Of a stretch of DNA of 64,000 bases, positions 3,256 to 29,069 are shown piece after piece. Positions within the stretch are counted from its first letter, which is position 1, and each line of letters begins with the position of its first letter. The stretch lies in assembly GCF_988243305.1 (NCBI RefSeq), contig NZ_OZ547136.1. The stretch is one strand, 5' to 3'. Under the pieces are notes generated by a model. The model was not told the origin of the DNA. It made no database searches and saw nothing but the letters and a program-made list of their open reading frames with translations. The position numbers and the translations under genes are program-made.

Positions 3256-3260
3256 AAAAC

Positions 3261-3296
3261 GATCGATAAAACAGGTATTGATCGTTGCTATCGATC
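3261..3296. promoter_or_regulatory. three clustered GATC (Dam) sites; agn43 Dam/OxyR phase-variation region
   Basis: GATC at 3261-3264, 3280-3283 and 3293-3296 within 36 bp, about 220 bp upstream of the flu ATG; matches the known three-GATC OxyR operator architecture of agn43. Confidence 0.7.
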
Positions 3297-3513
3297 GTTT
3301 ATAGTGGTTAATGGTCTGCGAAAAGGCAGCTGAATCTCTTCATCATGCAGAACGGAATTGCACACAACGGACTGATACTTCTCTGGCGGATGAGAGAGGG
3401 GAAGCATTTATGTCCGGGAAAAACCACTTTATCTGAGCATGCTGTTTTGTACCTGCCGGTATCCACATTTGTGGGTACCGGCTTTTTTATTCACCCTCTG
3501 TAAGGAAAAGCTG

Positions 3514-6633: not shown

Positions 6634-6753
6634 CAGAACCATCGCCTCTCTGTGGTCCCGGTCATCATGATCGGGACCCGGACCGGCGCAACGGATATTC
6701 AACGCCACATTCGCTGGCATTAACAATAACATGATATTCATCACGGAGTGACT

Positions 6754-9270: not shown

Positions 9271-9345
9271 CGGCTATTCTGCGCCTTTTACGCTTTATCA
9301 CCTGATTTGTCAGTGTCATCGTCATGACTCAGAGAGGTAAATACC

Positions 9346-9801
9346 ATGATTCACCTGTTCAAAACCTGCATGATTACCGCCTTCATTCTGGGGTTAACGT
9401 GGTCTGCCCCACTCCGGGCACAGGATCAACGTTACATCAGTATACGCAATACAGATACGATATGGCTCCCGGGAAATATTTGTGCTTACCAGTTCCGGCT
9501 GGATAATGGCGGAAACGATGAAGGATTTGGCCCCCTCACCATCACTCTGCAACTCAAAGACAAATATGGTCAGACGCTGGTGACCAGAAAAATGGAAACG
9601 GAAGCTTTTGGTGACAGTAATGCCACGCGAACCACAGACGCATTTCTGGAAACGGAGTGCGTGGAAAATGTCGCCACAACCGAAATCATCAAAGCAACTG
9701 AAGAAAGTAACGGCCATCGTGTCAGTCTGCCGTTATCGGTTTTCAATCCCCAGGACTACCATCCACTGCTGATTACCGTTTCCGGAAAAAACGTTAACTG
9801 A
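9346..9801 (+). CDS. hypothetical secreted protein (signal peptide)
   Basis: ORF with N-terminal signal-like sequence MIHLFKTCMITAFILGLTWSAPLRA; gagagg RBS 8 nt upstream. Confidence 0.5.
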   Translation: MIHLFKTCMITAFILGLTWSAPLRAQDQRYISIRNTDTIWLPGNICAYQFRLDNGGNDEGFGPLTITLQLKDKYGQTLVTRKMETEAFGDSNATRTTDAFLETECVENVATTEIIKATEESNGHRVSLPLSVFNPQDYHPLLITVSGKNVN

Positions 9802-9879
9802 TCCCTGAAGTCAGTTTCATGCTTCAGCCTCTGTCACAACGCGTGGCAGAGGCTTTTTATTTATCAGGAGAAAACAGAT

Positions 9880-10113
9880 ATGCCGGGTTACACAGAGTAT
9901 GTCCTGGCTGAAGGATCTTTCTCATACGGGCAGGCGGTTGCTGTCATAACCGCTTACCGCAATGTGTTTATCCAGGATGACCCGGGAATGCATTTCCGTC
10001 GGGTTATCCGCAACGCGGAAGGTCAGCGACGCTGGCGCTGCCGGAATTCTGAACCCGATGCCGGAAAGGTGCTTAATACGCGGCTCGCCAGTGACGGTCT
10101 TCTCAGACAATAA
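9880..10113 (+). CDS. small island protein (DUF905/YkfF-like by position)
   Basis: 77-aa ORF with aggag RBS; occupies the slot of the small DUF905 gene preceding DUF932 in CP4-type modules; family assignment from memory only. Confidence 0.4.
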
Positions 10114-10212
10114 ACGTCATTCATTTCACCCATCAGGCCGCGTCTTCTCCGGGAGACGTGGCTTTTTCATTTATTACACCAGTAAATCTTAACCACCGAT
10201 AAGGAGCAAATT

Positions 10213-11031
10213 ATGCGACTAGCCAGTCGTTTTGGTTATGCGAACCAGATACGCCGTGACCGTCCGCTGACACACGAAGAACTGATGCACTATGTGCCGG
10301 GGATTTTCGGGGAAGATAAACACACGTCCCGAAGCCAGAACTATACGTACATCCCCACCATCACCGTACTGGAAAGCCTGCAGCGGGAAGGCTTTCAGCC
10401 ATTCTTCGCCTGCCAGACCCGTGTGCGCGACCCGGGCCGCCGGGGATACACAAAACACATGCTGCGTCTGCGGCGGGCCGGAGAGATAAACGGAGAACAT
10501 GTCCCTGAAATTATTCTGCTCAACTCTCATGACGGTACCTCCAGCTACCAGATGCTGCCGGGTTACTTCAGGTTCGTCTGCCAGAACGGATGCGTCTGTG
10601 GTCAGTCTCTGGGGGAAGTGCGTGTTCCGCACCGGGGAAATGTGGTGGACAGAGTCATTGAAGGGGCTTACGAGGTGGTGGGCGTGTTTGACCGGATTGA
10701 GGAAAAGCGTGATGCCATGCAGTCGCTGATTCTGCCGCCACCGGCACGCCAGGCGCTGGCACAGGCGGCACTGACTTACCGTTATGGTGACGAACATCAG
10801 CCCGTCACCACCGCCGACATTCTGACGCCACGACGCCGGGAGGATTACGGTAAGGACCTGTGGAGTGCTTATCAGACCATTCAGGAGAATATGCTGAAAG
10901 GCGGAATTTCAGGTCGCAGCGCTAAAGGAAAACGTATCCATACCCGTGCCATTCACAGCATTGACACTGACATTAAGCTCAACCGCGCATTGTGGGTGAT
11001 GGCGGAAACCCTGCTGGAGAGCCTGCGCTGA
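10213..11031 (+). CDS. DUF932 family protein (YfjQ/YafZ-like)
   Basis: 272-aa ORF with aaggag RBS; length and position match the YfjQ/YafZ family of CP4 prophage-like islands. Confidence 0.6.
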   Translation: MRLASRFGYANQIRRDRPLTHEELMHYVPGIFGEDKHTSRSQNYTYIPTITVLESLQREGFQPFFACQTRVRDPGRRGYTKHMLRLRRAGEINGEHVPEIILLNSHDGTSSYQMLPGYFRFVCQNGCVCGQSLGEVRVPHRGNVVDRVIEGAYEVVGVFDRIEEKRDAMQSLILPPPARQALAQAALTYRYGDEHQPVTTADILTPRRREDYGKDLWSAYQTIQENMLKGGISGRSAKGKRIHTRAIHSIDTDIKLNRALWVMAETLLESLR

Positions 11032-11085
11032 TTCAGCCATTACCCTGAAAACCACGCATTTATTTGTCCTTTAAGGAGTCATTTC

Positions 11086-11571
11086 ATGAAAACCATTTCA
11101 CATAATTCCACCACATCTTCTGTTTCCGTAACCGCTGCATCAGGGAATGACCAGCCTCAGTTGGTTGCCACCCTCGTCCCTGATGAACAGCGCATCAGCT
11201 TCTGGCCGCAGCACTTTGGCCTCATTCCACAGTGGGTGACCCTGGAGCCCCGTGTCTTCGGCTGGATGGACCGTCTGTGTGAAGACTACTGCGGTGGTAT
11301 CTGGAATCTGTACACCCTGAACAACGGCGGGGCATTTATGGCACCCGAACCGGATGACGATGATGACGAAACATGGGTACTGTTCAATGCCATGAACGGT
11401 AACCGCGCTGAAATGAGTCCGGAAGCTGCCGGCATTGCTGCCTGTCTGATGACGTACAGTCATCATGCCTGTCGTACGGAGTGTTATGCCATGACGGTCC
11501 ATTATTACCGGCTGCGGGATTACGCCCTGCAGCATCCGGAATGCAGCGCCATTATGCGCATCATCGACTGA
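11086..11571 (+). CDS. antirestriction protein (ArdB/KlcA-like, YfjX/YafX family)
   Basis: 161-aa ORF, aaggag RBS, acidic DDDDDE stretch; conserved position upstream of the radC-like gene. Confidence 0.6.
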   Translation: MKTISHNSTTSSVSVTAASGNDQPQLVATLVPDEQRISFWPQHFGLIPQWVTLEPRVFGWMDRLCEDYCGGIWNLYTLNNGGAFMAPEPDDDDDETWVLFNAMNGNRAEMSPEAAGIAACLMTYSHHACRTECYAMTVHYYRLRDYALQHPECSAIMRIID

Positions 11572-11586
11572 ATGGAGAGAAGTACA

Positions 11587-12063
11587 ATGCAACAGCTTTC
11601 CTTTCTGCCCGGAGAGATGACGCCCGGCGAGCGCAGCCTCATTCAACGGGCCCTGAAAACCCTGGACCGCCATCTTCATGAACCCGGCGTGGCCTTCACC
11701 TCCACCCGTGCGGCACGAGAATGGCTGATTCTGAACATGGCGGGACTGGAGCGTGAAGAGTTCCGGGTGCTGTATCTGAACAACCAGAATCAGCTGATTG
11801 CCGGTGAAACCCTCTTCACCGGCACCATCAACCGCACGGAAGTCCATCCCCGTGAAGTGATTAAACGCGCCCTGTATCACAATGCCGCTGCTGTGGTGCT
11901 GGCACACAATCACCCGTCCGGTGAAGTCACACCCAGCAAGGCAGACCGCCTTATCACGGAACGTCTGGTACAGGCACTGGGCCTGGTGGATATCCGGGTG
12001 CCGGACCATCTGATAGTCGGTGGCAGCCAGGTTTTCTCCTTTGCCGAACATGGTCTGCTTTAA
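11587..12063 (+). CDS. yeeS: RadC-like JAB-domain protein
   Basis: JAMM-like motif HNHPSGEVTPSKADRLIT; K-12 YeeS-like N-terminus MQQLSFLPGEMTPGERS at ATG 11587 (ORF-track start 11572). Confidence 0.75.
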   Translation: MQQLSFLPGEMTPGERSLIQRALKTLDRHLHEPGVAFTSTRAAREWLILNMAGLEREEFRVLYLNNQNQLIAGETLFTGTINRTEVHPREVIKRALYHNAAAVVLAHNHPSGEVTPSKADRLITERLVQALGLVDIRVPDHLIVGGSQVFSFAEHGLL

Positions 12064-12125
12064 CCCGTCACAACCACATCACACCTGTTTTCACTTTTAT
12101 CTTCTGTCTTCAGAGGTATCCCACT

Positions 12126-12347
12126 ATGAAAATCATCACCCGTGGCGAAGCCATGCGTATTCACCGTCAGCATCCGGCATCCCGTCTTTTTCCGTTCTGT
12201 ACCGGCAAATACCGCTGGCACGGCAGTGCTGAAGCGTATACCGGTCGTGAAGTGCAGGATATTCCCGGTGTGCTGGCCGTATTTGCAGAACGCCGTAAGG
12301 ACAGTTTTGGTCCGTATGTCCGGCTGATGAGCGTCACCCTGAACTGA
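12126..12347 (+). CDS. yeeT: DUF987 small protein
   Basis: 73-aa ORF MKIITRGEAMRIHRQHPASRLFPFCTGKYRWHG, in the conserved position upstream of cbeA. Confidence 0.6.
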   Translation: MKIITRGEAMRIHRQHPASRLFPFCTGKYRWHGSAEAYTGREVQDIPGVLAVFAERRKDSFGPYVRLMSVTLN

Positions 12348-12509
12348 TGTTCCGTCACCCGGAAAACGAGTACGACTGGCTGAGCTCAGACGCCGCTGTG
12401 GATGAGGTCCTGCTCATCAACGAATACACCTTTACCGAAGCCGGTCTGCGCGCCGGCTGACCCGTCATCGTTAAACTATCATTCACCGATTTTCTGTGAG
12501 GATTTTATC

Positions 12510-12878
12510 GTGTCAGACACACTTTCCGGGACAACGCATCCCGATGACAATGACGACCATCCCTGGTGGGGACTACCCTGCACAGTGACGCCCTGTTTCG
12601 GCGCCCGTCTGGTGCAGGAGGGTAACCGCCTGCATTACCTTGCCGACCGCGCCGGTATCAGAGGCCTGTTCAGCGATGCAGATGCGTACCACCTGGACCA
12701 GGCCTTTCCGCTGCTGATGAAACAACTGGAACTCATGCTCACCAGCGGTGAACTGAATCCCCGCCATCAGCATACCGTCACGCTGTATGCAAAAGGTCTG
12801 ACCTGCAAAGCTGACACTCTCGGTAGCGGTGGTTACGTTTATCTGGCTGTTTATCCGACGCCCGAAACGAAAAAGTAA
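12510..12878 (+). CDS. cbeA: CbeA antitoxin (YeeU family, type IV TA)
   Basis: In-frame GTG at 12510 gives a 122-aa product [38 protein letters not shown]...; the ORF-track start at 12402 is probably an upstream extension. Confidence 0.8.
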
Positions 12879-12967
12879 ACCACCGGAATAACCTTCTGCT
12901 CCGGCCTGGTGCTTTCACCACGCCACTTTTCCATTTTTCATCTCTGCATATCAGGAAAACCTTCAGT

Positions 12968-13342
12968 ATGAAAACATTACCCGATACACACGTACGGGAG
13001 GCATCGAGCTGCCCGTCTCCCGTCACCATCTGGCAGACTCTGCTCTCCCGACTACTGGGCCAGCATTACGGCCTTACACTGAATGACACACCGTTCGCCG
13101 ATGAACGTGTGATTGAGCAGCATATTGAAGCTGGCATTTCACTGTGTGATGCGGTGAATTTTCTCGTGGAAAAATACGCGCTGGTGCGTACCGACCAGCC
13201 GGGATTCAGCACTTGTCCCCGCTCTCAGTTAATAAACAGTATTGATATCCTCCGGGCTCGCAGGGCGACCGGCCTGATGACCCGCGACAATTACAGAACG
13301 GTAAATAACATTACCCTGGGTAAGCATCCGGAGAAACGATGA
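12968..13342 (+). CDS. cbtA: CbtA toxin (YeeV family; cytoskeleton-targeting)
   Basis: 124-aa ORF immediately downstream of cbe[71 protein letters not shown]. Confidence 0.8.
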
Positions 13343-13827
13343 AACTTTCCCTGATGCTGGAAGCCGACAGAATTAATGTGCAGGCACTGAACATGGGGCG
13401 AATTGTCGTTGACGTCGATGGTGTTAATCTCACTGAACTGATTAACAAGGTCGCTGAAAACGGTTATTCACTCCGCGTGGTGGAGGAATCCGACCAACAG
13501 TCAACCTGCACACTACCACCGTTTGCAACCCTTGCCGGCATACGCTGCAGTACCGCACATATCACGGAAAAGGATAACGCCTGGCTGTACTCGCTGTCGC
13601 ATCAGACCAGTGACGTTGGTGAATCAGAATGGATTCATTTCACAGGTAGCGGATATCTGTTACGTACCGATGCGTGGTCATATCCGGTTCTGCGGCTTAA
13701 ACGCCTGGGGCTGTCAAAAACGTTCCGTCGTCTGGTTATCACACTTACCCGACGTTATGGCGTCAGTCTCATTCATCTGGATGCCAGCGCTGAATGCCTG
13801 CCGGGTTTACCCACTTTCAACTGGTAA
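13339..13827 (+). CDS. yeeW: YeeW-like protein
   Basis: 162-aa ORF overlapping the cbtA stop by 4 bp (ATGA), the position yeeW holds in CP4-44. Confidence 0.5.
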
Positions 13828-13838
13828 CCAGGAACAAC

Positions 13839-14036
13839 ATGAAATCATTAACCACGGAAACCGCACTGGATATTCTGATTGCGTGGCTGCAGGACAATAT
13901 CGACTGCGAATCGGGAATTATCTTTGACAACAATGAGGATAAAACGGATTCAGCAGCACTGTTGCCCTGTATCGAACAGGCCAGAGAGGATATCCGTACC
14001 CTGCGCCAACTGCAGCTTCAGCACCAGAACCGGTGA
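13839..14036 (+). CDS. small hypothetical protein (65 aa)
   Basis: ATG at 13839 preceded by aggaa; followed by a clear terminator. Confidence 0.35.
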   Translation: MKSLTTETALDILIAWLQDNIDCESGIIFDNNEDKTDSAALLPCIEQAREDIRTLRQLQLQHQNR

Positions 14037-14066
14037 GTCTTACTCACCAGACTTCATTCCACTGAC

Positions 14067-14097
14067 GCCAGCCTGAACAGGGCTGGCATTTTCATTT
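14067..14097 (+). terminator. rho-independent terminator
   Basis: Stem gccagcc (14067-14073) / ggctggc (14081-14087), loop tgaacag, then attttcattt. Confidence 0.6.
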
Positions 14098-14753
14098 ATC
14101 TGCAAAAAGGAATATCGATTATGTCTGATATCACAGCCTACCGTCCGGAAGTGGTCAACGAGAATACGGACGTTATCTGCTCAACCAGCATCCGCCGCAT
14201 TCTGGCTGTACGAAAGAGTTCACTGCTGCAAATCGACACAATTATCCGGCATCAAGTGAGCGATATCAGTTAACAGATATAGATGGAGAAGATGCTTTTA
14301 TCCGGATTGGTTCTATCGCGATGGTGCGAGTACTACTTGATGCAATGAAGCCTGTCGAGGAAGATGACGAGTAACAGAGCTCGGTATCTCAATCAGGAGC
14401 TGATTGTCCTGGTTCGATGCCGAAAACCAGTGATTTTTCGTGTTGGTATCTGTGTTGGTATAAGATGATATTGTTTATTATTAACAATTTTAAATCATGA
14501 GGTTAAGTCACATGTTTGAGTCCGGCCTTCGCACCTTCGCACCTTCGCACCATCGGAACATCAATAGACATCAACGGACGTTTTTTTATGACTGAAATCC
14601 GCGCCACACAAGGCTTTTCGCTATTTTTCGCTCAACCTAAGTCAACCTACATCAACTTACTGATGTGGATACAGCTACAGCTGCGGCTATACCCCGATTC
14701 GATAATGTTTGTACCCACACAAAACCCTTGAAAGGCTACAAGGCTGAAATTGT

Positions 14754-15238
14754 CTAAACCATAGAGATGATTTTTATGATCCAGTCTTTCTCTTGTTGAG
14801 ATAGTTCCAGTTTGCTCACTCGTGTTAAGAAGGTATTGATCACCTGAACATCCGAATTGGTGAGCCTATTTAATAGAGCGGGTGGTATACCTTTACTAAC
14901 AATCGCTTTGCGGTGACTTTCGTAGTTTTTATTACTCATTGTTGATCCTAAAAAATCATTGTATGGCGGCATTGATCGTTTCCAGCAACCTTTACTTACT
15001 CACTTCGAACTGCATCCTCGTAGACTGTTCCACTACAATAATCGAAAAGGCGCGGATGTCCATTCAGGTATCCCGCTAATACGTATAGCAATAACAATGG
15101 CTTATGCGGCGCGCGCTGTTCACCCTTGTGCCAGATTTTTATATTGGCAATTGCCTGCTGTAGCGATTTACTGGAAGCTATTGATATCCCTGGCAGTGAA
15201 ATAATTGCGATCATGCTCGCAAATTTTCTGCTGTTCAA
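14754..15238 (-). pseudogene. possible disrupted gene (two adjacent short ORFs, 80 aa and 72 aa)
   Basis: ORFs 14996..15238 and 14754..14972 on the same strand in different frames separated by 23 bp; divergent from the HNH gene; no recognisable family. Confidence 0.25.
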
Positions 15239-15317
15239 GCCTGCAAGTGAAGATATATTACCTTGATCTCATTTGTTTTTTTGCTGCCTGTTCTGAGAAC
15301 GTATAAGGACATTCTCC

Positions 15318-15968
15318 ATGAATAAACTCCCTGATCATCTTCCGCGGCGGTATATCATCGAAGCTATCCATTTATGGGATGCGGGAGAAACTCATCAGTT
15401 CCAGCCTGCGCGGTTGTATGAGATTGAATATCATGGCCGACGTTACCCCTCGAAGGCGATTGCTGGCATCGCAGCGACATTGATGACGGGGACGCAATTT
15501 ACCCCTGCGGATTTCACCGGCGGAATAAAATCTAAATGTGTCAAGCTACTCATAGAGCAGGGATTTCATATTCATCTGGATAAAGCCGCTGCGGCTCCCA
15601 TAGCCGACGTTCTGTTCCCGGATGAGTTGCCGTCGCAGGAGACATACCTTGAAGGTGCGGCGATAAAGGTGACAGTAAACCGCTATGAACGCGATAAAAA
15701 GGCCCGAGATAAAGCGGTCGAACATCATGGATGCCAGTGCAACGTATGCGGTGTTGATCTGGTGAAGATCTATGGTGATATCGCTGAAGGCTTTATCCAT
15801 GTGCATCACCTGGTGCCGCTGTCAGCCATTAAAGAGGATTACCAGCTGGATCCAGTTAATGATTTGCTGCCTGTGTACCCTAATTGCCATGCGATGTTGC
15901 ACCGACGCAAACCACCGTTTACGCCGGAGCAGTTAAAAGCGCTGATGGATGCGAATAAATCAAATTAA
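15318..15968 (+). CDS. HNH endonuclease family protein
   Basis: 216-aa ORF; C-terminal HNH signature CQCNVCG ... HVHHLVPLS ... NCHAMLH (two Cys pairs flanking His/Asn catalytic positions); N-terminal about 120 aa of unknown function. Confidence 0.7.
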   Translation: MNKLPDHLPRRYIIEAIHLWDAGETHQFQPARLYEIEYHGRRYPSKAIAGIAATLMTGTQFTPADFTGGIKSKCVKLLIEQGFHIHLDKAAAAPIADVLFPDELPSQETYLEGAAIKVTVNRYERDKKARDKAVEHHGCQCNVCGVDLVKIYGDIAEGFIHVHHLVPLSAIKEDYQLDPVNDLLPVYPNCHAMLHRRKPPFTPEQLKALMDANKSN

Positions 15969-15975
15969 TGAACGC

Positions 15976-16956
15976 TCACCTTTCGCGCCAAAACTGCAAA
16001 ATTGCTTCTACAAACTTGTCAGAAATAATCCCCCGACGGGCTGCCGTGCTGAAATGACTGCTTCGCAGTGCCGTCGTCCAGTTCTCCGGTGACCGGTACG
16101 CTGAACCGTAATATCCCGTGCTTAAATCGTCCGGGTCTTCATCAGGCGCGTTCGTCAGTCCTCTTTCACCTTGTTGCTGGAAGTCGACGAAAATAATATT
16201 GGCTAAAACATTATTTTGATAATTGCCATAAATAACTTCATACGCATGAGGGAAATTTTCTTTCCAGTACCAGGTGGTATCGCCGCAAAACCACGGTGCG
16301 TCAGTAATATTATTAAGCTGAGAATGGTATTGTTTTAGATCCCTACGAAAGGCTTCAACCATATGATTAAAGTGTTGAGGGTGTGACGCGTAGTCACTGG
16401 TCATTAAGTCAAATTCGCCTTGCATCCAGCATACGCCGAGGAATTTGTTATGCGGATTTTTTGCCAGTGCGGCTCGCGTTCTGCTGACTAAATCCTGGTA
16501 TAGCGGAGTATCCGTTCCCCAACGACAAGCATCATGGCTGGCTCCGTGCCGTTCTGAATATGTTCCTTCGCTGCCCGCGGTAAAAGCCGATCCGCCACGG
16601 CAACACGGAACGATGAGAACCCCTGCATTATCAGGAATAAAGGGCAGTAATTTCCGTGCTATATGCAGTGCCTGGCCAACGGTGCCGTACTGTGTTTGAT
16701 GATTCGTTGCCAGAGGATGGTGATAACCCTGCATATCCTGAACATCGTGTGGGCAGTGAGTCAGTGGAATAATGTCGTTAAAGTGACATGACGGGCCTCC
16801 GGGATGCGTATGCGCAAATCTCGCTAATTGTTTAATTCTGGGATGAGGCGCATCTTCCCTGTCCGGTAATGGCAGTCCTTCGCCATACGCCATGGCATTA
16901 GACTGACCAGCAACGGTAAGAATATAGTAATAATCAGGCGATATTATTGCGTTCAT
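15976..16956 (-). CDS. nanS: N-acetyl-9-O-acetylneuraminate esterase
   Basis: ORF 15976..16983; K-12-like N-terminus MNAIISPDYYYILTVAGQSNAMAYGEG starts at ATG 16956; 326 aa. Confidence 0.85.
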   Translation of the reverse strand: MNAIISPDYYYILTVAGQSNAMAYGEGLPLPDREDAPHPRIKQLARFAHTHPGGPSCHFNDIIPLTHCPHDVQDMQGYHHPLATNHQTQYGTVGQALHIARKLLPFIPDNAGVLIVPCCRGGSAFTAGSEGTYSERHGASHDACRWGTDTPLYQDLVSRTRAALAKNPHNKFLGVCWMQGEFDLMTSDYASHPQHFNHMVEAFRRDLKQYHSQLNNITDAPWFCGDTTWYWKENFPHAYEVIYGNYQNNVLANIIFVDFQQQGERGLTNAPDEDPDDLSTGYYGSAYRSPENWTTALRSSHFSTAARRGIISDKFVEAILQFWRER

Positions 16957-17020
16957 ATAAATTTCGCGTAATTGAAATGACAAATTGATAGCAGGGCCCC
17001 TTTACCGGGGCCCTGAAGCG

Positions 17021-18127
17021 TTAGTTTTGTACTGTGACTTTATTATCCTTCACAGAAATTAAAACTGAATCCATCACTGCTTTGCCGCCTGCAGTTTCAC
17101 CGCCAATAATTAATAAACTATTATTCCAGGGCAATGATACTCCGTAGGCCCGACCTTGCGATAATTCACCCGATTTATCCCATTTCCCGTTATACCAAAG
17201 ATGAATATCAACGCTATATGATTTTTTCAGGCCTTCATGCGCATAGTTCTTACCGTTCTGGTAATTTTCTCGTGAACCTTTGAATCCGGCCCCTCCAGCA
17301 AATATAAGAGAATCATTGCTTATCCCCGCAAAACCGCCAGCGACGCCATCTGGTGATGAGACGGGATCAAGCTTATTCCATTTTAAATTATCACCGGTGA
17401 AGTCAAGTTCAAATACGGCATCCGTTCGCAATCCTGGTTTGGCTTCGCCATTAATAAGCCAGGTTTTATCACCTTTATTCACAACCGCCGCACCAGCCGT
17501 TCCGTACCAGGGAGATTCGCCAGCGTAACTCCATTGCTGTGTTGAGGGATCAAAAGACAACAGAAACTTATTGAAGAAATAATCTTCTGCTTTTTTGTCA
17601 AAATAGTAGGCGTTGATTTTATCTATAGCGGTTGAATCTTTTCCAGCTTCGTTGAGATCTTCAAAATAGCCATTGAAGATATTCTGGTTAACACCGCCAG
17701 TAACATAAGCCTTGCCGTTGTGTACAAAAGTCACATGGCCCGCCATGCCCATCGGCGCGTGCGACATCAATTTAACCCAGCTATTGGTTTTGGGGTTGTA
17801 TTTGTGTACGTCATTAAATACCTGAGTCAAGCCCTCGCTGTTTTTGCCAATGCCGCCAAACACATACAGATTGCCATCAATAAATGCAGAGGTTGCTTGA
17901 TCTCTCGGTCCGCCAGGGAATGCAGCTAACGCTGTCCATCTTTTATCTTTGGCCTGTGTATCCAGCTTGTACCATGCCGTACCTGCGCTACCTAAACCAA
18001 TGTAGACAGTGTCGTTATCAATTGCTCCGGTACCACTTTTAAATGGCACAGGAGTTTCCGGTAATACAGACGCGTTTGCGGCAAATGAAGCCATTATGAT
18101 AGTAAGCGCCGTTATTGTTTTATTCAT
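17021..18127 (-). CDS. nanM: N-acetylneuraminate epimerase (sialic acid mutarotase, Kelch repeats)
   Basis: ORF 17021..18235; signal peptide MNKTITALTIIMASFAANA at ATG 18127 preceded by aggag; 368 aa. Confidence 0.85.
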   Translation of the reverse strand: MNKTITALTIIMASFAANASVLPETPVPFKSGTGAIDNDTVYIGLGSAGTAWYKLDTQAKDKRWTALAAFPGGPRDQATSAFIDGNLYVFGGIGKNSEGLTQVFNDVHKYNPKTNSWVKLMSHAPMGMAGHVTFVHNGKAYVTGGVNQNIFNGYFEDLNEAGKDSTAIDKINAYYFDKKAEDYFFNKFLLSFDPSTQQWSYAGESPWYGTAGAAVVNKGDKTWLINGEAKPGLRTDAVFELDFTGDNLKWNKLDPVSSPDGVAGGFAGISNDSLIFAGGAGFKGSRENYQNGKNYAHEGLKKSYSVDIHLWYNGKWDKSGELSQGRAYGVSLPWNNSLLIIGGETAGGKAVMDSVLISVKDNKVTVQN

Positions 18128-18146
18128 TGTGACTGTCTCCTGTCTA

Positions 18147-18863
18147 CTACAGTTTAAATGACACACCAATGCGATAACTGTTTTCCGATAAATTATCTCT
18201 GCCGTTGTAAACACCCTGACGGTCAAGGTAGTCATATTCTATGTATGGCGTAATATCGGGCGTCATATGGTATTGTAGAACAAATGCATTTTCCGTCGCC
18301 CATTTCTTATGGTTTGCATAGCGATAATCGTTCTGTTTACTGTATAGCGTCGTTTGCCATGCGAAGGTGAAATCACTATTAATATGGTAAGTGACATATC
18401 CATCCCAACGATGAACGTTATCACGAGACATATCACCAGATAAGTCTTGTTGTCGGTAAGCTTTCCAGTCGTAACGATAGCGAATGCCAAAATTAAGATC
18501 TTTTGTCGCGTCCCAGGACAGTTTTACGTAGGGTCCGTAGCGTGTGCCATTGCTGCTAAAATGCGTTAACATTCCCGGGCGCACCGTCCATTGATCATCA
18601 AGTTTAATCGCGTAATTAACTTCAACCTGAACATCATTGAGTGCGGCATTTTCCTTTTTATTATCATGAATGGTATTCCAGGTATTACTTTCCATGCTTG
18701 CCCACCATCCATTTTGCCATCCCTCACTGACTTTGAGTCGAGTCTCATAGGCGTGGCTTCCACTACGATATCCACCACGTACGTCCAGTGTCGCAGCCTG
18801 AGAAATTAATGGGGACGAAAAGCACAGTAATAATACGCTAGAAAGTATTTTAGCCTTTTTCAT
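18147..18863 (-). CDS. nanC: N-acetylneuraminic acid outer membrane channel (KdgM family)
   Basis: ORF 18147..18872; MKKAKILSSVLLLCFSSPLISQA signal peptide from ATG 18863; beta-barrel-like alternating pattern. Confidence 0.85.
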   Translation of the reverse strand: MKKAKILSSVLLLCFSSPLISQAATLDVRGGYRSGSHAYETRLKVSEGWQNGWWASMESNTWNTIHDNKKENAALNDVQVEVNYAIKLDDQWTVRPGMLTHFSSNGTRYGPYVKLSWDATKDLNFGIRYRYDWKAYRQQDLSGDMSRDNVHRWDGYVTYHINSDFTFAWQTTLYSKQNDYRYANHKKWATENAFVLQYHMTPDITPYIEYDYLDRQGVYNGRDNLSENSYRIGVSFKL

Positions 18864-20316
18864 AAATTTCACTCATTTGTAGGATACAGAAAGCAATACA
18901 AAGCCCGCATAAACAATTAGCATTTATGTTGTGTAATATTTTTTTGCCAGGCTTATAGTGTCTTTGGCAACCGGTAGCTGTATTTTATATTTTTTGTATA
19001 ATATCTCCTGTGAAAAATCTCTTTCCACATTATTTAAATAAACAGAGGGCCAGATTAAATACCTGAGTATAAAATCTCTGCTGATGTTTAATTGATTTGA
19101 ATTTTCGTAAGCTATATCGCTTACTCAATCCATTTTACCCAGAGTCATAAAATAGAGTGTCTGTTGATCTCATTTTCATATTCCTTTCAGACTGAAGTGC
19201 GTTTTCATCACCCGATGAGAAAGAACTGAAGTGATGTTTGCCATAGATTACGAGATGCCCAGTCTCATTGACTATCGCGGTGCACCTTTATACCTGTTAT
19301 ACCAGATCAAAAATCACGCAATCCATACAACAAAACCAGATTTGCAATTCGTGTCACAAAATATGTCGATCTTTTCCTAAGAAGCAGATGCCATGTGAAG
19401 CCAGACGAACACTTGCATTGGTCTTCAAAAACTAAAGGTTTTCTTTTAACAATCTGTTTTGTAAATAATTTATTTAGAATCTAAACAAAGAAAGCTTTGC
19501 AAGCTAACTCAGTGAGCTTGGTGAAAATAAGTGTTTACCCGCCATCAGGCTGAGTATAATTCTCATCATGAAATATGTTTCTTGGTTTGTGGCTTGTAAC
19601 TGGTCACTCCTGATGTCGATCTGGAGAGGCTTGTTGATGTTGGTGTTTTCAGGATGATGTTTCACTTAGTTTGTTTGCCGTATCGCCCGGCGAATAGCTG
19701 TGATTGAGGAAGGTTTAAGTCGTAGTGACCAAAGCCATAGTTACCAACGGATGTAGATGAAAAAGCGTCGCCTGCGTTCCCCCATATCTCCAGGATAAAA
19801 GGGAATGTAACAATCTCATGGCCTAAGCTGACGAACCAGGCAGGAATAATCGCTAGGGATCTAAGAATTAGCATGATAATAGCCACTAAGAAATTACTGC
19901 GTTCCATGAAATAGCCATTTTGTGGCAAATGGAGTTGACTAATAATGTCATATGTGAGACGGCTAGTTGAACGAATATTAAATTTTGCTGAATTTTTTAT
20001 GTTGATTTTACTTGTTACAGAACATATCACATGATATATAGATAAGATTAGTTGCATTAATGATGAGGGTTATTATTAGATTCGTATCAGATTGATAAAT
20101 ATATAAAGGTACATAGCATGCAAGAGCATGGCGTTTGTATGGCAAAGTTATTATAAGTAACTATCGCTACTCCATTTAAGTTCGCTCAGAAGAACTGGTC
20201 CACTTACGTTAGTTATTAAGCAAACGTTCGCTTTTATAAACATAATCAGGATTAAAATGTTGGATTATTGCTAACCCAGCACAGCTAGTGCGCGTCTGTA
20301 ATTATAAGGGAAAACG

Positions 20317-20919
20317 ATGAAGAATAAGGCTGATAACAAAAAAAGGAACTTCCTTACCCATAGTGAAATCGAGTCACTCCTTAAAGCAGCAAATACCGGG
20401 CCTCATGCAGCACGTAATTATTGTCTGACTTTGCTTTGTTTTATTCATGGTTTCCGGGCGAGTGAAATTTGTCGATTGAGGATTTCGGATATTGATCTTA
20501 AGGCAAAGTGTATATATATCCATCGATTAAAAAAAGGCTTTTCAACAACGCACCCGCTATTGAACAAAGAAGTTCAGGCTTTAAAAAACTGGTTGAGTAT
20601 CCGTACTTCTTATCCGCATGCTGAGAGCGAGTGGGTATTTTTATCACGTAAGGGGAATCCGCTTTCTCGGCAACAGTTTTACCATATTATCTCGACTTCT
20701 GGTGGTAATGCCGGGTTGTCACTGGAGATTCATCCGCACATGTTACGCCATTCGTGTGGTTTTGCTTTGGCGAATATGGGAATAGATACGCGACTTATCC
20801 AGGATTATCTTGGGCATCGCAATATTCGTCATACTGTCTGGTATACCGCCAGCAATGCAGGGCGTTTTTACGGCATCTGGGATAGAGCCAGAGGACGACA
20901 GCGTCACGCTGTTTTATAG
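20317..20919 (+). CDS. fimB: type 1 fimbriae switch recombinase FimB (tyrosine recombinase)
   Basis: 200-aa ORF MKNKADNKKRNFLTHSEIESLL...; catalytic motif HPHMLRHSCGFALA...LGHRNIRHTVWYT. Confidence 0.95.
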   Translation: MKNKADNKKRNFLTHSEIESLLKAANTGPHAARNYCLTLLCFIHGFRASEICRLRISDIDLKAKCIYIHRLKKGFSTTHPLLNKEVQALKNWLSIRTSYPHAESEWVFLSRKGNPLSRQQFYHIISTSGGNAGLSLEIHPHMLRHSCGFALANMGIDTRLIQDYLGHRNIRHTVWYTASNAGRFYGIWDRARGRQRHAVL

Positions 20920-21396: not shown

Positions 21397-21993
21397 GTGA
21401 GTAAACGTCGTTATCTTACCGGTAAAGAAGTTCAGGCCATGATGCAGGCGGTTTGTTACGGGGCAACGGGAGCCAGAGATTATTGTCTTATTCTGTTGGC
21501 ATATCGGCATGGGATGCGTATTAGTGAACTGCTTGATCTGCATTATCAGGATCTTGACCTTAATGAAGGTCGAATAAATATTCGCCGACTGAAGAACGGA
21601 TTTTCTACCGTTCACCCGTTACGTTTTGATGAGCGTGAAGCCGTGGAACGCTGGACCCAGGAACGCGCTAACTGGAAAGGCGCTGACCGGACCGACGCTA
21701 TATTTATTTCTCGCCGCGGGAGTCGGCTTTCTCGCCAGCAGGCCTATCGCATTATTCGCGATGCAGGTATTGAAGCTGGAACCGTAACGCAGACTCATCC
21801 TCATATGTTAAGGCATGCTTGCGGTTATGAACTGGCGGAGCGTGGTGCAGATACTCGTTTAATTCAGGATTATCTCGGGCATCGAAATATTCGCCATACT
21901 GTGCGTTATACCGCCAGTAATGCTGCTCGTTTTGCCGGATTATGGGAAAGAAATAATCTCATAAACGAAAAATTAAAAAGAGAAGAGGTTTGA
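21397..21993 (+). CDS. fimE: type 1 fimbriae switch recombinase FimE (ON-to-OFF)
   Basis: 198-aa ORF from GTG 21397 with caggag RBS; paralogous to FimB (HPHMLRHACGYELA...LGHRNIRHTVRYT). Confidence 0.95.
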   Translation: MSKRRYLTGKEVQAMMQAVCYGATGARDYCLILLAYRHGMRISELLDLHYQDLDLNEGRINIRRLKNGFSTVHPLRFDEREAVERWTQERANWKGADRTDAIFISRRGSRLSRQQAYRIIRDAGIEAGTVTQTHPHMLRHACGYELAERGADTRLIQDYLGHRNIRHTVRYTASNAARFAGLWERNNLINEKLKREEV

Positions 21994-22040
21994 TTTAACT
22001 TATTGATAATAAAGTTAAAAAACAAATAAATACAAGACAA

Positions 22041-22049
22041 TTGGGGCCA
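22041..22049. repeat. fimS left inverted repeat (IRL)
   Basis: ttggggcca. Confidence 0.9.
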
Positions 22050-22059
22050 AACTGTCCAT

Positions 22060-22089
22060 ATCATAAATAAGTTACGTATTTTTTCTCAA
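22060..22089 (-). promoter_or_regulatory. fimA promoter inside fimS, here facing away from fimA (phase-OFF)
   Basis: On the minus strand: TTGAGA (22089-22084), 18-bp spacer, TATGAT (22065-22060), next to IRL; no comparable rightward promoter next to IRR. Confidence 0.55.
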
Positions 22090-22345
22090 GCATAAAAATA
22101 TTAAAAAACGACAAAAAGCATCTAACTGTTTGATATGTAAATTATTTCTCTTGTAAATTAATTTCACATCACCTCCGCTATATGTAAAGCTAACGTTTCT
22201 GTGGCTCGACGCATCTTCCTCATTCTTCTCTCCAAAAACCACCTCATGCAATATAAAAATCTATAAATAAAGATAACAATAGAATATTAAGCCAACAAAT
22301 AAACTGAAAAAGTTTGTGCGCGATGCTTTCCTCTATGAGTCAAAA

Positions 22346-22354
22346 TGGCCCCAA
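22346..22354. repeat. fimS right inverted repeat (IRR)
   Basis: tggccccaa, reverse complement of IRL. Confidence 0.9.
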
Positions 22355-22473
22355 ATGTTTCATCTTTTGGGGGAAAACTGTGCAGTGTTGGCAGTCAAAC
22401 TCGTTGACAAAACAAAGTGTACAGAACGACTGCCCATGTCGATTTAGAAATAGTTTTTTTAAAGGAAAGCAGC

Positions 22474-23022
22474 ATGAAAATTAAAACTCTGGCAATCGTT
22501 GTTCTGTCGGCTCTGTCCCTCAGTTCCGCAGCGGCTCTGGCCGATACTACGACGGTAAATGGTGGGACCGTTCACTTTAAAGGGGAAGTTGTTAACGCCG
22601 CTTGCGCAGTTGATGCAGGCTCTGCTGATCAAACCGTTCAGTTAGGGCAGGTTCGTACCGCATCGCTGGCACAAGAAGGAGCAACCAGTTCTGCTGTCGG
22701 TTTTAACATTCAACTGAACGATTGTGACACTACTGTTGCAGATAAAGCTGCTATTGCCTTCCTTGGTACCGCAATTGATGGAACTCATCCTAACGTATTA
22801 GCTTTGCAGAGTTCAGCTGCGGGTAGCGCAACAAAAGTTGGTGTGCAGATCCTGGACAGAACGGGTGCTGCGCTGGCGCTGGACGGTGCGACATTTAGTG
22901 CACAAACAACCCTGAATAACGGAACCAACACCATTCCGTTCCAGGCGCGTTATTTTGCAACCGGTGCCGCAACCCCAGGTGCTGCTAATGCGGATGCGAC
23001 CTTCAAGGTTCAGTATCAATAA
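22474..23022 (+). CDS. fimA: type 1 fimbrial major subunit
   Basis: ORF 22417..23022; [23 protein letters not shown] signal peptide from ATG 22474 after aaaggaaag. Confidence 0.95.
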
Positions 23023-23086
23023 CCTACCCAGGTTCAGGGACGTCATTACGGGCAGGGATGCCCACCCTTGTGCGATAAAAATAACG

Positions 23087-23626
23087 ATGAAAAGGAAGAG
23101 ATTATTTCTATTAGCGTCGTTACTGCCAATGTTTGCTCTGGCCGGAAATAAATGGAATACCACGCTGCCCGGCGGAAATATGCAATTTCAGGGCGTCATT
23201 ATTGCGGAAACTTGCCGAGTTGAAGCTGGTGATAAACAAATGACGGTCAATATGGGGCAAATCAGCAGTAACCGGTTTCATGCGGTAGGGGAAGATAGCG
23301 CACCGGTGCCTTTTGTTATTCATTTACGGGAATGTAGCACGGTGGTGAGTGAACGTGTGGGTGTGGCGTTTCACGGTGTCGCGGATGGTAAAAATCCGGA
23401 TGTGCTTTCCGTGGGAGAGGGGCCAGGGATAGCCACAAATATTGGCGTAGCGTTATTTGATGATGAAGGAAACCTCGTACCGATTAATCGTCCTCCAGCA
23501 AACTGGAAACGGCTTTACTCAGGCTCTACTTCGCTACATTTCATCGCCAAATATCGTGCTACCGGGCGTCGGGTTACTGGCGGCATCGCCAATGCCCAGG
23601 CCTGGTTCTCTTTAACCTATCAGTAA
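23087..23626 (+). CDS. fimI: fimbrial protein FimI
   Basis: ORF 22955..23626; [19 protein letters not shown] from ATG 23087; 179 aa. Confidence 0.9.
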
Positions 23627-23662
23627 TTGTTCAGCAGATAATGTGATAACAGGAACAGGACA

Positions 23663-24388
23663 GTGAGTAATAAAAACGTCAATGTAAGGAAATCGCAGGA
23701 AATAACATTCTGCTTGCTGGCAGGTATCCTGATGTTCATGGCAATGATGGTTGCCGGACGCGCTGAAGCGGGAGTGGCCTTAGGTGCGACTCGCGTAATT
23801 TATCCGGCAGGGCAAAAACAAGTGCAACTTGCCGTGACAAATAATGATGAAAATAGTACCTATTTAATTCAATCATGGGTGGAAAATGCCGATGGTGTAA
23901 AGGATGGTCGTTTTATCGTGACGCCTCCTCTGTTTGCGATGAAGGGAAAAAGAGAGAATACCTTGCGTATTCTTGATGCAACAAATAACCAATTGCCACA
24001 GGATCGGGAAAGTTTATTCTGGATGAATGTTAAAGCGATTCCGTCAATGGATAAATCAAAATTGACTGAGAATACGCTACAGCTCGCAATTATCAGCCGC
24101 ATTAAACTGTACTATCGCCCGGCTAAATTAGCGTTGCCACCCGATCAGGCCGCAGAAAAATTAAGATTTCGTCGTAGCGCGAATTCTCTGACGCTGATTA
24201 ACCCGACACCCTATTACCTGACGGTAACAGAGTTGAATGCCGGAACCCGAGTTCTTGAAAATGCATTGGTGCCTCCAATGGGCGAAAGCACGGTTAAATT
24301 GCCTTCTGATGCAGGAAGCAATATTACTTACCGAACAATAAATGATTATGGCGCACTTACCCCCAAAATGACGGGCGTAATGGAATAA
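23663..24388 (+). CDS. fimC: periplasmic fimbrial chaperone FimC
   Basis: 241-aa ORF; PapD-like chaperone. Confidence 0.9.
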   Translation: MSNKNVNVRKSQEITFCLLAGILMFMAMMVAGRAEAGVALGATRVIYPAGQKQVQLAVTNNDENSTYLIQSWVENADGVKDGRFIVTPPLFAMKGKRENTLRILDATNNQLPQDRESLFWMNVKAIPSMDKSKLTENTLQLAIISRIKLYYRPAKLALPPDQAAEKLRFRRSANSLTLINPTPYYLTVTELNAGTRVLENALVPPMGESTVKLPSDAGSNITYRTINDYGALTPKMTGVME

Positions 24389-24454
24389 CGCAGGGGGAAT
24401 TTTTCGCCTGAATAAAAAGAATTGACTGCCGGGTGATTTTAAACCGGAGGAATA

Positions 24455-27091
24455 ATGTCATATCTGAATTTAAGACTTTACCAGCGAAACACACAATGCT
24501 TGCATATTCGTAAGCATCTTTTGGCTGGTTTTTTTGTCCGGCTCTTTGTCGCCTGTGCTTTTGCCGCACAGGCACCTTTGTCATCTGCCGAACTCTATTT
24601 TAATCCGCGCTTTTTAGCGGATGATCCCCAGGCTGTGGCCGATTTATCGCGTTTTGAGAATGGGCAAGAATTACCGCCAGGGACGTATCGTGTCGATATC
24701 TATTTGAATAATGGTTATATGGCAACGCGTGATGTCACATTTAATACGGGCGACAGCGAACAAGGGATTGTTCCCTGCCTGACACGCGCGCAACTTGCCA
24801 GTATGGGGCTGAATACGGCTTCTGTCTCCGGTATGAATCTGCTGGCGGATGATGCCTGCGTGCCATTAACCTCAATGATCCATGACGCTACTGCGCATTT
24901 AGATGTTGGTCAGCAGCGACTCAACCTGACGATCCCTCAGGCATTTATGAGTAATCGCGCGCGTGGATATATTCCTCCTGAGTTGTGGGATCCCGGTATT
25001 AATGCCGGATTGCTCAATTATAATTTCAGCGGAAATAGTGTACAGAATCGGATTGGGGGTAACAGCCATTATGCATATTTAAACCTACAGAGTGGGTTAA
25101 ATATTGGTGCGTGGCGTTTACGCGACAATACCACCTGGAGTTATAACAGTAGCGACAGTTCATCAGGTAGCAAAAATAAATGGCAGCATATCAATACCTG
25201 GCTTGAGCGAGACATAATTCCGTTACGTTCCCGGCTGACGCTGGGTGATGGTTATACCCAGGGCGATATTTTCGATGGTATTAACTTTCGCGGCGCACAA
25301 TTGGCCTCAGATGACAATATGTTACCCGATAGCCAAAGAGGATTTGCCCCGGTGATCCACGGTATTGCTCGTGGTACTGCACAGGTCACTATTAAACAAA
25401 ATGGGTATGACATTTATAATAGTACGGTGCCACCGGGGCCTTTTACCATCAACGATATCTATGCCGCAGGTAATAGTGGTGACTTGCAGGTAACGATTAA
25501 AGAGGCTGACGGCAGCACGCAGATCTTTACCGTACCCTATTCGTCAGTCCCGCTTTTGCAACGGGAAGGACATACTCGTTATTCCATTACGGCAGGAGAA
25601 TACCGTAGTGGAAATGCGCAGCAGGAAAAACCTCGCTTTTTCCAGAGTACATTACTCCACGGCCTTCCGGCTGGCTGGACAATATATGGTGGAACGCAAC
25701 TGGCGGATCGTTATCGTGCTTTTAATTTCGGTATCGGGAAAAACATGGGGGCACTGGGCGCTCTGTCTGTGGATATGACGCAGGCTAATTCCACACTTCC
25801 CGATGACAGTCAGCATGACGGACAATCGGTGCGTTTTCTCTATAACAAATCGCTCAATGAATCAGGCACGAATATTCAGTTAGTGGGTTACCGTTATTCG
25901 ACCAGTGGGTATTTTAATTTCGCTGATACAACATACAGTCGAATGAATGGCTACAACATCGAAACACAGGATGGTGTTATTCAGGTTAAGCCGAAATTCA
26001 CCGACTATTACAATCTCGCTTATAACAAACGCGGGAAATTACAACTCACCGTTACTCAGCAACTCGGGCGCACATCAACACTGTATTTGAGTGGTAGCCA
26101 TCAAACTTATTGGGGAACGAGTAATGTCGATGAGCAATTCCAGGCTGGTTTAAATACTGCATTCGAAGATATCAACTGGACGCTCAGCTATAGCCTGACG
26201 AAAAACGCCTGGCAAAAAGGACGGGATCAGATGTTAGCGCTTAACGTCAATATTCCTTTCAGCCACTGGCTGCGTTCTGACAGTAAATCTCAGTGGCGAC
26301 ATGCCAGTGCCAGCTACAGCATGTCACACGATCTCAACGGTCGGATGACCAATCTGGCCGGTGTATACGGTACGTTGCTGGAAGACAACAACCTCAGCTA
26401 TAGCGTGCAAACCGGCTATGCCGGGGGAGGCGATGGTAATAGCGGAAGCACAGGCTACGCCACGCTGAATTATCGCGGTGGTTACGGCAATGCCAACATC
26501 GGTTACAGCCATAGCGATGATATTAAGCAGCTCTATTATGGAGTCAGCGGTGGGGTACTGGCTCATGCCAATGGCGTAACGCTGGGGCAGCCGTTAAACG
26601 ATACGGTGGTGCTTGTTAAAGCGCCTGGCGCAAAAGATGCAAAAGTCGAAAACCAGACGGGGGTGCGTACCGACTGGCGCGGTTATGCCGTGCTGCCTTA
26701 TGCCACTGAATATCGGGAAAACAGAGTAGCGCTGGATACCAATACCCTGGCTGATAACGTCGATTTAGATAACGCGGTCGCTAACGTTGTTCCCACTCGT
26801 GGGGCGATAGTGCGAGCAGAGTTTAAAGCGCGCGTTGGGATAAAACTGCTCATGACGCTAACCCACAATAATAAGCCGCTGCCGTTTGGGGCGATGGTGA
26901 CATCAGAGAGTAGCCAGAGTAGCGGCATTGTTGCGGATAATGGTCAGGTTTACCTCAGCGGAATGCCTTTAGCGGGAAAAGTTCAGGTGAAATGGGGAGA
27001 AGAGGAAAATGCTCACTGTGTCGCCAATTATCAACTGCCACCAGAGAGTCAGCAGCAGTTATTAACCCAGCTATCAGCTGAATGTCGTTAA
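24455..27091 (+). CDS. fimD: outer membrane fimbrial usher FimD
   Basis: 878-aa ORF MSYLNLRLYQRNTQCLHIRKH...; usher-size protein. Confidence 0.95.
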   Translation: MSYLNLRLYQRNTQCLHIRKHLLAGFFVRLFVACAFAAQAPLSSAELYFNPRFLADDPQAVADLSRFENGQELPPGTYRVDIYLNNGYMATRDVTFNTGDSEQGIVPCLTRAQLASMGLNTASVSGMNLLADDACVPLTSMIHDATAHLDVGQQRLNLTIPQAFMSNRARGYIPPELWDPGINAGLLNYNFSGNSVQNRIGGNSHYAYLNLQSGLNIGAWRLRDNTTWSYNSSDSSSGSKNKWQHINTWLERDIIPLRSRLTLGDGYTQGDIFDGINFRGAQLASDDNMLPDSQRGFAPVIHGIARGTAQVTIKQNGYDIYNSTVPPGPFTINDIYAAGNSGDLQVTIKEADGSTQIFTVPYSSVPLLQREGHTRYSITAGEYRSGNAQQEKPRFFQSTLLHGLPAGWTIYGGTQLADRYRAFNFGIGKNMGALGALSVDMTQANSTLPDDSQHDGQSVRFLYNKSLNESGTNIQLVGYRYSTSGYFNFADTTYSRMNGYNIETQDGVIQVKPKFTDYYNLAYNKRGKLQLTVTQQLGRTSTLYLSGSHQTYWGTSNVDEQFQAGLNTAFEDINWTLSYSLTKNAWQKGRDQMLALNVNIPFSHWLRSDSKSQWRHASASYSMSHDLNGRMTNLAGVYGTLLEDNNLSYSVQTGYAGGGDGNSGSTGYATLNYRGGYGNANIGYSHSDDIKQLYYGVSGGVLAHANGVTLGQPLNDTVVLVKAPGAKDAKVENQTGVRTDWRGYAVLPYATEYRENRVALDTNTLADNVDLDNAVANVVPTRGAIVRAEFKARVGIKLLMTLTHNNKPLPFGAMVTSESSQSSGIVADNGQVYLSGMPLAGKVQVKWGEEENAHCVANYQLPPESQQQLLTQLSAECR

Positions 27092-27100
27092 GGGGGCGTG

Positions 27101-27631
27101 ATGAGAAACAAACCTTTTTATCTTCTGTGCGCTTTTTTGTGGCTGGCGGTAAGTCACGCTTTGGCTGCGGATAGCACGATTACTATCCGCGGCTATGTCA
27201 GAGATAACGGCTGTAGTGTGGCCGCTGAATCAACCAATTTTACTGTTGATCTGATGGAAAACGCGGCGAAGCAATTTAACAACATTGGCGCGACGACTCC
27301 TGTCGTTCCATTTCGTATTTTGCTGTCACCCTGTGGTAATGCCGTTTCTGCCGTAAAAGTTGGGTTTACCGGTGTTGCAGATAGCCACAATGCCAACCTG
27401 CTTGCACTTGAAAATACGGTGTCAGCGGCTGCGGGACTGGGAATACAGCTTCTGAATGAGCAACAAAATCAGATACCCCTTAATGCCCCATCGTCCGCGA
27501 TTTCGTGGACGACCCTGACGCCGGGTAAACCAAATACGCTGAATTTTTACGCCCGGCTAATGGCGACACAGGTGCCTGTCACTGCAGGGCATATCAATGC
27601 CACGGCTACCTTCACTCTTGAATATCAGTAA
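27101..27631 (+). CDS. fimF: fimbrial minor subunit FimF
   Basis: ORF 27098..27631; ATG at 27101 ([22 protein letters not shown]). Confidence 0.9.
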
Positions 27632-27643
27632 CTGGAGATGCTC

Positions 27644-28147
27644 ATGAAATGGCGCAAACGTGGGTATTTATTGGCGGCAATATTGGCGCTCGCAAGTGCG
27701 ACGATACAGGCAGCCGATGTCACCATCACGGTGAACGGTAAGGTCGTCGCCAAACCGTGCACGGTTTCCACCACCAATGCCACGGTAGATCTCGGCGATC
27801 TTTATTCTTTCAGTCTGATGTCTGCCGGGGCGGCATCGGCCTGGCATGATGTTGCGCTTGAGTTGACTAATTGTCCGGTGGGAACGTCGAGGGTCACTGC
27901 CAGCTTCAGCGGGGCAGCCGACGGTACCGGATATTATAAAAATCAGGGGACCGCGCAAAACATCCAGTTAGAGCTACAGGATGACAGTGGCAACACATTG
28001 AATACTGGCGCAGCCAAAACAGTTCAGGTGGATGATTCCTCACAATCAGCGCACTTCCCGTTACAGGTCAGAGCATTGACGGTAAATGGCAGAGCCACTC
28101 AGGGAACCATTCAGGCAGTGATTAGCATCACCTATACCTACAGCTGA
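27644..28147 (+). CDS. fimG: fimbrial minor subunit FimG
   Basis: ORF 27638..28147; ATG 27644 (MKWRKRGYLLAAILALASA) with ggag 6 nt upstream. Confidence 0.9.
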   Translation: MKWRKRGYLLAAILALASATIQAADVTITVNGKVVAKPCTVSTTNATVDLGDLYSFSLMSAGAASAWHDVALELTNCPVGTSRVTASFSGAADGTGYYKNQGTAQNIQLELQDDSGNTLNTGAAKTVQVDDSSQSAHFPLQVRALTVNGRATQGTIQAVISITYTYS

Positions 28148-28166
28148 ACCCGAAGAGATGATTGTA

Positions 28167-29069
28167 ATGAAACGAGTTATTACCCTGTTTGCTGTACTGC
28201 TGATGGGCTGGTCGGTAAATGCCTGGTCATTCGCCTGTAAAACCGCCAATGGCACCGCTATCCCTATTGGCGGTGGCAGCGCCAATGTTTATGTAAACCT
28301 TGCGCCCGCCGTGAATGTGGGGCAAAACCTGGTCGTAGATCTTTCGACGCAAATCTTTTGCCATAACGATTACCCGGAAACCATTACAGACTATGTCACA
28401 CTGCAACGAGGCTCGGCTTACGGCGGCGTGTTATCTAATTTTTCCGGGACCGTAAAATATAGTGGCAGTAGCTATCCATTTCCGACCACCAGCGAAACGC
28501 CGCGCGTTGTTTATAATTCGAGAACGGATAAGCCGTGGCCGGTGGCGCTTTATTTGACGCCTGTGAGCAGTGCGGGCGGGGTGGCGATTAAAGCTGGCTC
28601 ATTAATTGCCGTGCTAATTTTGCGACAGACCAACAACTATAACAGCGATGATTTCCAGTTTGTGTGGAATATTTACGCCAATAATGATGTGGTGGTGCCT
28701 ACTGGCGGCTGTGATGTTTCTGCTCGTGATGTCACCGTTACTCTGCCGGACTACCCTGGTTCAGTGCCAATTCCTCTTACCGTTTATTGTGCGAAAAGCC
28801 AAAACCTGGGGTATTACCTCTCCGGCACAACCGCAGATGCGGGCAACTCGATTTTCACCAATACCGCGTCGTTTTCACCAGCGCAGGGCGTCGGCGTACA
28901 GTTGACGCGCAACGGTACGATTATTCCAGCGAATAACACGGTATCGTTAGGAGCAGTAGGGACTTCGGCGGTAAGTCTGGGATTAACGGCAAATTACGCA
29001 CGTACCGGAGGGCAGGTGACCGCAGGGAATGTGCAATCGATTATTGGCGTGACTTTTGTTTATCAATAA
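28167..29069 (+). CDS. fimH: mannose-specific fimbrial tip adhesin FimH
   Basis: ORF 28158..29069; MKRVITLFAVLLMGWSVNAWS signal peptide then FACKTANGTAIPIGGG; 300 aa. Confidence 0.95.
   Translation: MKRVITLFAVLLMGWSVNAWSFACKTANGTAIPIGGGSANVYVNLAPAVNVGQNLVVDLSTQIFCHNDYPETITDYVTLQRGSAYGGVLSNFSGTVKYSGSSYPFPTTSETPRVVYNSRTDKPWPVALYLTPVSSAGGVAIKAGSLIAVLILRQTNNYNSDDFQFVWNIYANNDVVVPTGGCDVSARDVTVTLPDYPGSVPIPLTVYCAKSQNLGYYLSGTTADAGNSIFTNTASFSPAQGVGVQLTRNGTIIPANNTVSLGAVGTSAVSLGLTANYARTGGQVTAGNVQSIIGVTFVYQ

Follow-up and report, generated by a model that had tools for sequence, protein, structure and literature searches.

A 314-bp invertible element upstream of fimA poses the question of which of its two orientations an assembled genome records, and of what that orientation says about the capacity of a strain to produce type 1 fimbriae. 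This question was addressed here within the window, i.e. the whole 64-kb stretch of DNA analysed, in which the element occupies positions 22041–22354 between fimE and fimA. In the original prediction it was placed in phase OFF from the direction of a promoter-like site alone; we considered its identity, its orientation and its ability to invert separately, and compared its state with that of the same locus in other complete genomes.

Identity of the invertible element

The element is bounded by a left 9-bp inverted repeat, IRL (TTGGGGCCA, 22041–22049), and a right one, IRR (TGGCCCCAA, 22346–22354), which are exact reverse complements of one another. A repeat finder lengthens each of the two arms to 22 nt, with 77% complementarity (22028–22049 and 22346–22367), and in published work the recombinase half-sites flank and overlap the core repeats. 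The published definition of fimS is that of a 314-bp invertible element with 9-bp repeats, 5′-TTGGGGCCA, lying directly upstream of fimA, and the window reproduces the repeat sequence, the length and the location between fimE and fimA, with fimB found farther upstream. Perfect 9-bp inverted repeats are not unusual in such an AT-rich stretch, and a second one was detected there; the element is identified by where it lies and by its identity in sequence to fimS rather than by repeat statistics. There is no doubt that 22041–22354 represents the canonical fimS of E. coli and not a mere lookalike, and its initial description as an intact 314-bp element with perfect 9-bp inverted repeats holds for both the repeats and the length. 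An Rfam search returned nothing at fimS, as expected for a switch that operates at the level of DNA.

Two predicted binding sites for IHF, both on the minus strand, are placed as in the published locus. The consensus match TATCAATAAGTTA (21996–22008), which fits WATCAANNNNTTR, lies just outside IRL in the position of IHF-1, reported to adjoin this repeat, while the match TATCAAACAGTTA (22123–22135) lies inside the element in the position of IHF-2, a site within fimS that has been reported to boost the fimA promoter. These are two of only seven matches to the consensus in the 64-kb window.

Orientation of fimS

The published orientation assays were run in silico both on the window as it stands and on the window with 22041–22354 reverse-complemented. 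The published primers CMD1258 and CMD1259 delimit an amplicon of 650 bp (21927–22576), which HinfI cuts into fragments of 411 and 239 bp as the sequence stands and of 128 and 522 bp with the element flipped; the patterns published for this assay are 411 + 239 for OFF and 128 + 522 for ON. Digestion of the OL20/OL4 amplicon with BstUI gives 539 + 188 bp as is and 293 + 434 bp when flipped, against published patterns of 539 + 187 (OFF) and 433 + 293 (ON), the 1-bp difference in fragment length being accounted for by an amplicon of 727 bp here versus 726 bp in the published work. Both assays thus return the OFF fragments for the present sequence and the ON fragments for its inverted form. In the present orientation the diagnostic sites are found near IRR (22319–22341), where BstUI (CGCG) cuts before 22321 and HinfI (GAGTC) before 22338.

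Alignment of the region from fimE to fimA revealed collinearity from end to end, at ∼99% identity, with UTI89 as well as with MG1655. The UTI89 reference genome has been published as fimS OFF, and a match to the published ON form was not found. It is therefore very likely that fimS was assembled in the phase-OFF orientation, a call that follows from the HinfI and BstUI patterns and the collinearity with UTI89 and is independent of promoter direction. The conclusion originally drawn from the promoter is in agreement with both digests and with this alignment.

OFF and ON among complete genomes

A 1,001-bp query (window 21700–22700) was compared with 5,426 complete E. coli genomes, as was a second query consisting of the same 1,001 bp with 22041–22354 reverse-complemented, and an orientation was assigned where at least 80% of the query was covered in one collinear place. 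This cut-off separates the two orientations, because a genome in which the element is inverted relative to the query reaches a collinear coverage of no more than ∼69%. The query as it stands matched 4,725 of the 5,426 genomes, with 4,455 reaching at least 80% coverage and hence sharing the orientation of the window, and the flipped query was covered to the same extent in 251. The resulting split among classifiable genomes (∼95% OFF and ∼5% ON) agrees with the read-level ON figures published for K-12 colonies (∼1%) and for gut metagenomes (∼7.7%).

An OFF consensus is what would be expected of an assembly, since FimE biases switching from ON to OFF. OFF is the default, majority state of the locus in assemblies, and the finding, while correct, is an ordinary one that was already known. 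With 4,455 genomes OFF against 251 ON, the weight attached to it is the one thing that the original prediction overstated, and these counts provide a baseline against which orientation calls of this kind can be judged.

A single assembly is a consensus snapshot and tells nothing of the fraction of the culture that is ON. It could accordingly be argued that the orientation is only the assembler's resolution of a substantially mixed culture and carries little information on the state of the strain, given that fimS is reported to be heterogeneous within cultures and samples and that an assembly reports one consensus. We consider this unlikely, as both recombinases are present and the bias of FimE would leave OFF in a large majority under ordinary growth, which is what the split among complete genomes fits; moreover, it qualifies what 'captured' means rather than giving the element another identity. 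The reading of the locus as a typical phase-OFF fimS is preferred.

Recombinases, fim operon and the capacity to switch

The two tyrosine recombinase genes of the locus, fimB and fimE, encode proteins that are 52% identical to each other. fimB (20317–20919, plus strand; 200 aa) specifies the recombinase that inverts fimS in both directions, and its product matches MG1655 FimB exactly and UTI89 FimB at 99.5% identity over the full length. fimE (21397–21993, plus strand; 198 aa, stop codon at 21991–21993) encodes a protein identical to MG1655 FimE, for which a bias towards ON-to-OFF inversion is described in the literature. A search of the window for fimX, ipuA and similar genes revealed no FimB-family recombinases beyond these two.

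Downstream of the element, fimA (22474–23022, plus strand), which codes for the major subunit of type 1 fimbriae, is matched over its full length by UTI89 FimA in tblastn (91% identity), and fimI, fimC, fimD, fimF, fimG and fimH (23087–29069, plus strand) are likewise intact, with full-length tblastn matches to the UTI89 proteins at 98–99.8%. Just after fimA lies the sequence of the FimR2 sRNA, which stems from the fimA 3′ region (23033–23067, plus strand); all 35 nt agree with the fimR2 feature of the MG1655 annotation. The integrity of every gene of the locus is thus a matter of observation, as are the identity and orientation of the element that precedes them.

The flipped form of the element is likewise observed in nature. 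NZ_LR778147.1 matches the sequence flipped in silico along its entire 1,001 bp at 100.0% identity, and in NZ_CP148331.1 the fimE–fimS–fimA kilobase shows 100% identity to the unflipped window. The occurrence of the same allele in both orientations implies that it inverts naturally, the breakpoints lying inside the 9-bp repeats, and inversion at the repeats is in this way supported by the genomes of other isolates rather than by reads of the strain itself. As judged from its sequence, the switch appears to be intact and reversible rather than locked: the element is complete, FimB and FimE do not differ from those of K-12, fimA to fimH are full length, and the flipped allele exists elsewhere. 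This bears out the original view that both recombinases are intact and that the population should still be able to switch.

These observations also bear on whether the switch could be genetically locked OFF, through locking mutations of the kind reported in EHEC or through loss of a recombinase, such that the strain would be unable to make type 1 fimbriae. Lineages of this type do exist, EHEC and the EPEC strain E2348/69 being published examples, and three bases inside fimS set the window apart from K-12; however, two of these three differences are shared with UTI89, a switching strain, the full 314 bp and perfect repeats are retained, neither recombinase differs from its K-12 counterpart, and NZ_LR778147.1 carries the very same allele inverted, with 1,001 bp matching at 100% identity. 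A locked variant is rejected on these grounds (a complete element, intact recombinases and an identical allele inverted elsewhere) as highly improbable. Since the locus is complete and switchable, the OFF orientation of the phase-variable fimS found here should not be read as a loss of type 1 fimbriation. The result has little significance beyond correct annotation, and is of relevance where type 1 fimbriation is to be predicted from this genome.

The candidate fimA promoter and the fimA leader

A consensus scan of 21900–22520 identified TTGAGA-18-TATGAT as the top sigma-70 match, with 10 of 12 consensus positions. This site lies inside the element beside IRL on the minus strand (22060–22089; −35 TTGAGA at 22089–22084, an 18-nt spacer and −10 TATGAT at 22065–22060) and faces fimE, so that the leftward-reading promoter originally described at these positions is also the best site of the scan. 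Weaker sites with 9 of 12 positions were found inside fimS at 22130–22159 (plus strand) and 22279–22250 (minus strand). The number of hits does not exceed chance (three sites versus 2.3 ± 1.5 expected in shuffled sequences), and the promoter match alone is therefore not beyond chance. The TTGAGA and TATGAT hexamers are, however, invariant across the window, MG1655 and UTI89, and the IHF-2 consensus match is located ∼35 bp upstream of the −35 hexamer in the promoter's own direction. The two hexamers reportedly correspond to the fimA promoter mapped by Olsen & Klemm 1994. The scan, the conservation, the position relative to IHF-2 and this reported mapping together make the site a candidate for the fimA promoter, and in the present orientation fimA is cut off from it.

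The same scan gave no plus-strand sigma-70 site near IRR or in the fimA leader, in line with the initial observation that no comparable rightward promoter is present in either place. The fixed leader (22355–22473, plus strand) is without a promoter match and measures 119 nt, with the fimA ATG at 22474, and not 120 bp as first given. It does contain a lone perfect −35 hexamer, TTGACA (22404–22409), which is TTTACA in K-12 and is present as TTGACA in UTI89 too, and for which the scan of 21900–22520 found no −10 partner. It seems very improbable that this hexamer pairs with a non-canonical −10 and thereby allows a low, inversion-independent transcription of fimA even in phase OFF.

That the element is really ON, its promoter direction having been misjudged in the original prediction, can be rejected as having next to no probability, since the one point in its favour is the weakness of the consensus promoter scan, whereas two independent published restriction assays give OFF patterns in silico and the region is collinear with a UTI89 reference stated to be OFF.

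Proposed mechanism

Our results are consistent with a model in which the 314-bp element bears the promoter serving the fim operon and is flipped when FimB and FimE recombine the two 9-bp repeats. In the OFF orientation, the promoter beside IRL would read leftward towards the 3′ end of fimE, leaving fimAICDFGH without a promoter, and type 1 fimbriae would not be produced. According to published work, FimB flips the element either way while FimE returns it to OFF, and a Rho-dependent terminator in fimS acts on the fimE mRNA. Inversion of fimS may thus also join fimE to this terminator or part the two, and so affect the production of FimE; it has further been suggested, in one paper, that antisense transcription from the OFF promoter may destabilise fimE. 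The strong preference of FimE for ON-to-OFF inversion would leave most cells in most cultures OFF and hence produce an OFF consensus upon assembly, while, with all parts intact, a minority of cells could still turn ON through FimB. For promoter activity, termination of the fimE mRNA and the rates of switching, this model draws on the literature. Nothing that we observed contradicts its explanation of the locus as a phase-OFF fimS.

Surroundings of the locus in the 64-kb window

The left end of the window (1–14400) corresponds to a CP4-type island, as identified by comparison with strain 1297KP. Its genes encode a YfjI family protein, a GTPase family protein, the Ag43 autotransporter adhesin (agn43), an IrmA-family protein, DUF932 and an antirestriction protein, followed in this inventory by yeeS and yeeT, the CbeA/CbtA toxin–antitoxin pair, DUF5983 and DUF957. 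The agn43 gene lies within 3259–6633, and three GATC sites (3261, 3280 and 3293) just upstream of it are arranged as in the Dam/OxyR epigenetic phase switch; these sites are overlapped by an Rfam match to the IS102 RNA (3259–3495, 69.9 bits). Judging by this arrangement, agn43 would be a second phase-variable surface-adhesin locus, ∼19 kb from fimS.

Positions 1–20000 are covered to at least 80% in one place in only 145 of the 5,426 genomes. Between the island and nanM (15000–17000), annotation of a near-identical genome places an HNH endonuclease (15318–15968), part of a phosphorothioated-DNA-binding restriction endonuclease gene, and a sialate O-acetylesterase (nanS) pseudogene that is truncated, so that the interval looks like a decayed junction. 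NZ_CP148331.1 lacks the agn43 island upstream of nanS and has there instead a class I SAM-dependent DNA methyltransferase along with large helicases. This genome has the same fim kilobase and a different island, indicating that there is no linkage between the fim allele and the island next to it.

On the other side of the fim operon, an ORF of 1,746 aa (40923–46163, minus strand) matches what related genomes annotate as the inverse autotransporter IatD, another large adhesin-type gene. The right end of the window (60329–63957, minus strand) encodes the R subunit of a type I restriction endonuclease together with the start of the S subunit gene. Divergence is greatest in the right 24 kb of the window, where the best genome match is 98.4%.

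Comparison with known switches

Among the known systems, fimS of E. coli K-12 MG1655 (NC_000913.3) shares with the window its repeats, its length of 314 bp, its orientation, its promoter hexamers and both of its recombinases. The window differs from MG1655 by the three substitutions within fimS (window 22150, 22258 and 22318), by an A-run to the left of IRL that is one A shorter, and by two substitutions in the leader, including TTGACA in place of TTTACA at 22404–22409.

The fimS of the UPEC strain UTI89 (NC_007946.1) is collinear with that of the window and carries two of its three non-K-12 bases, the shorter A-run to the left of IRL and both leader variants, TTGACA among them. Its fim proteins are 98–99.8% identical to those of the window with the exception of FimA, which is only 91% identical and shows a 2-residue difference in length, and, unlike the window, it has about a dozen further substitutions inside fimS.

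The same logic, with tyrosine recombinases of the FimB family flipping a promoter carried on a short segment between short inverted repeats, is seen in other switches such as ipuS of UPEC and fimS of Klebsiella pneumoniae. These are, however, other loci with other repeats, in contrast to the element in the window, which is the fimS of E. coli.
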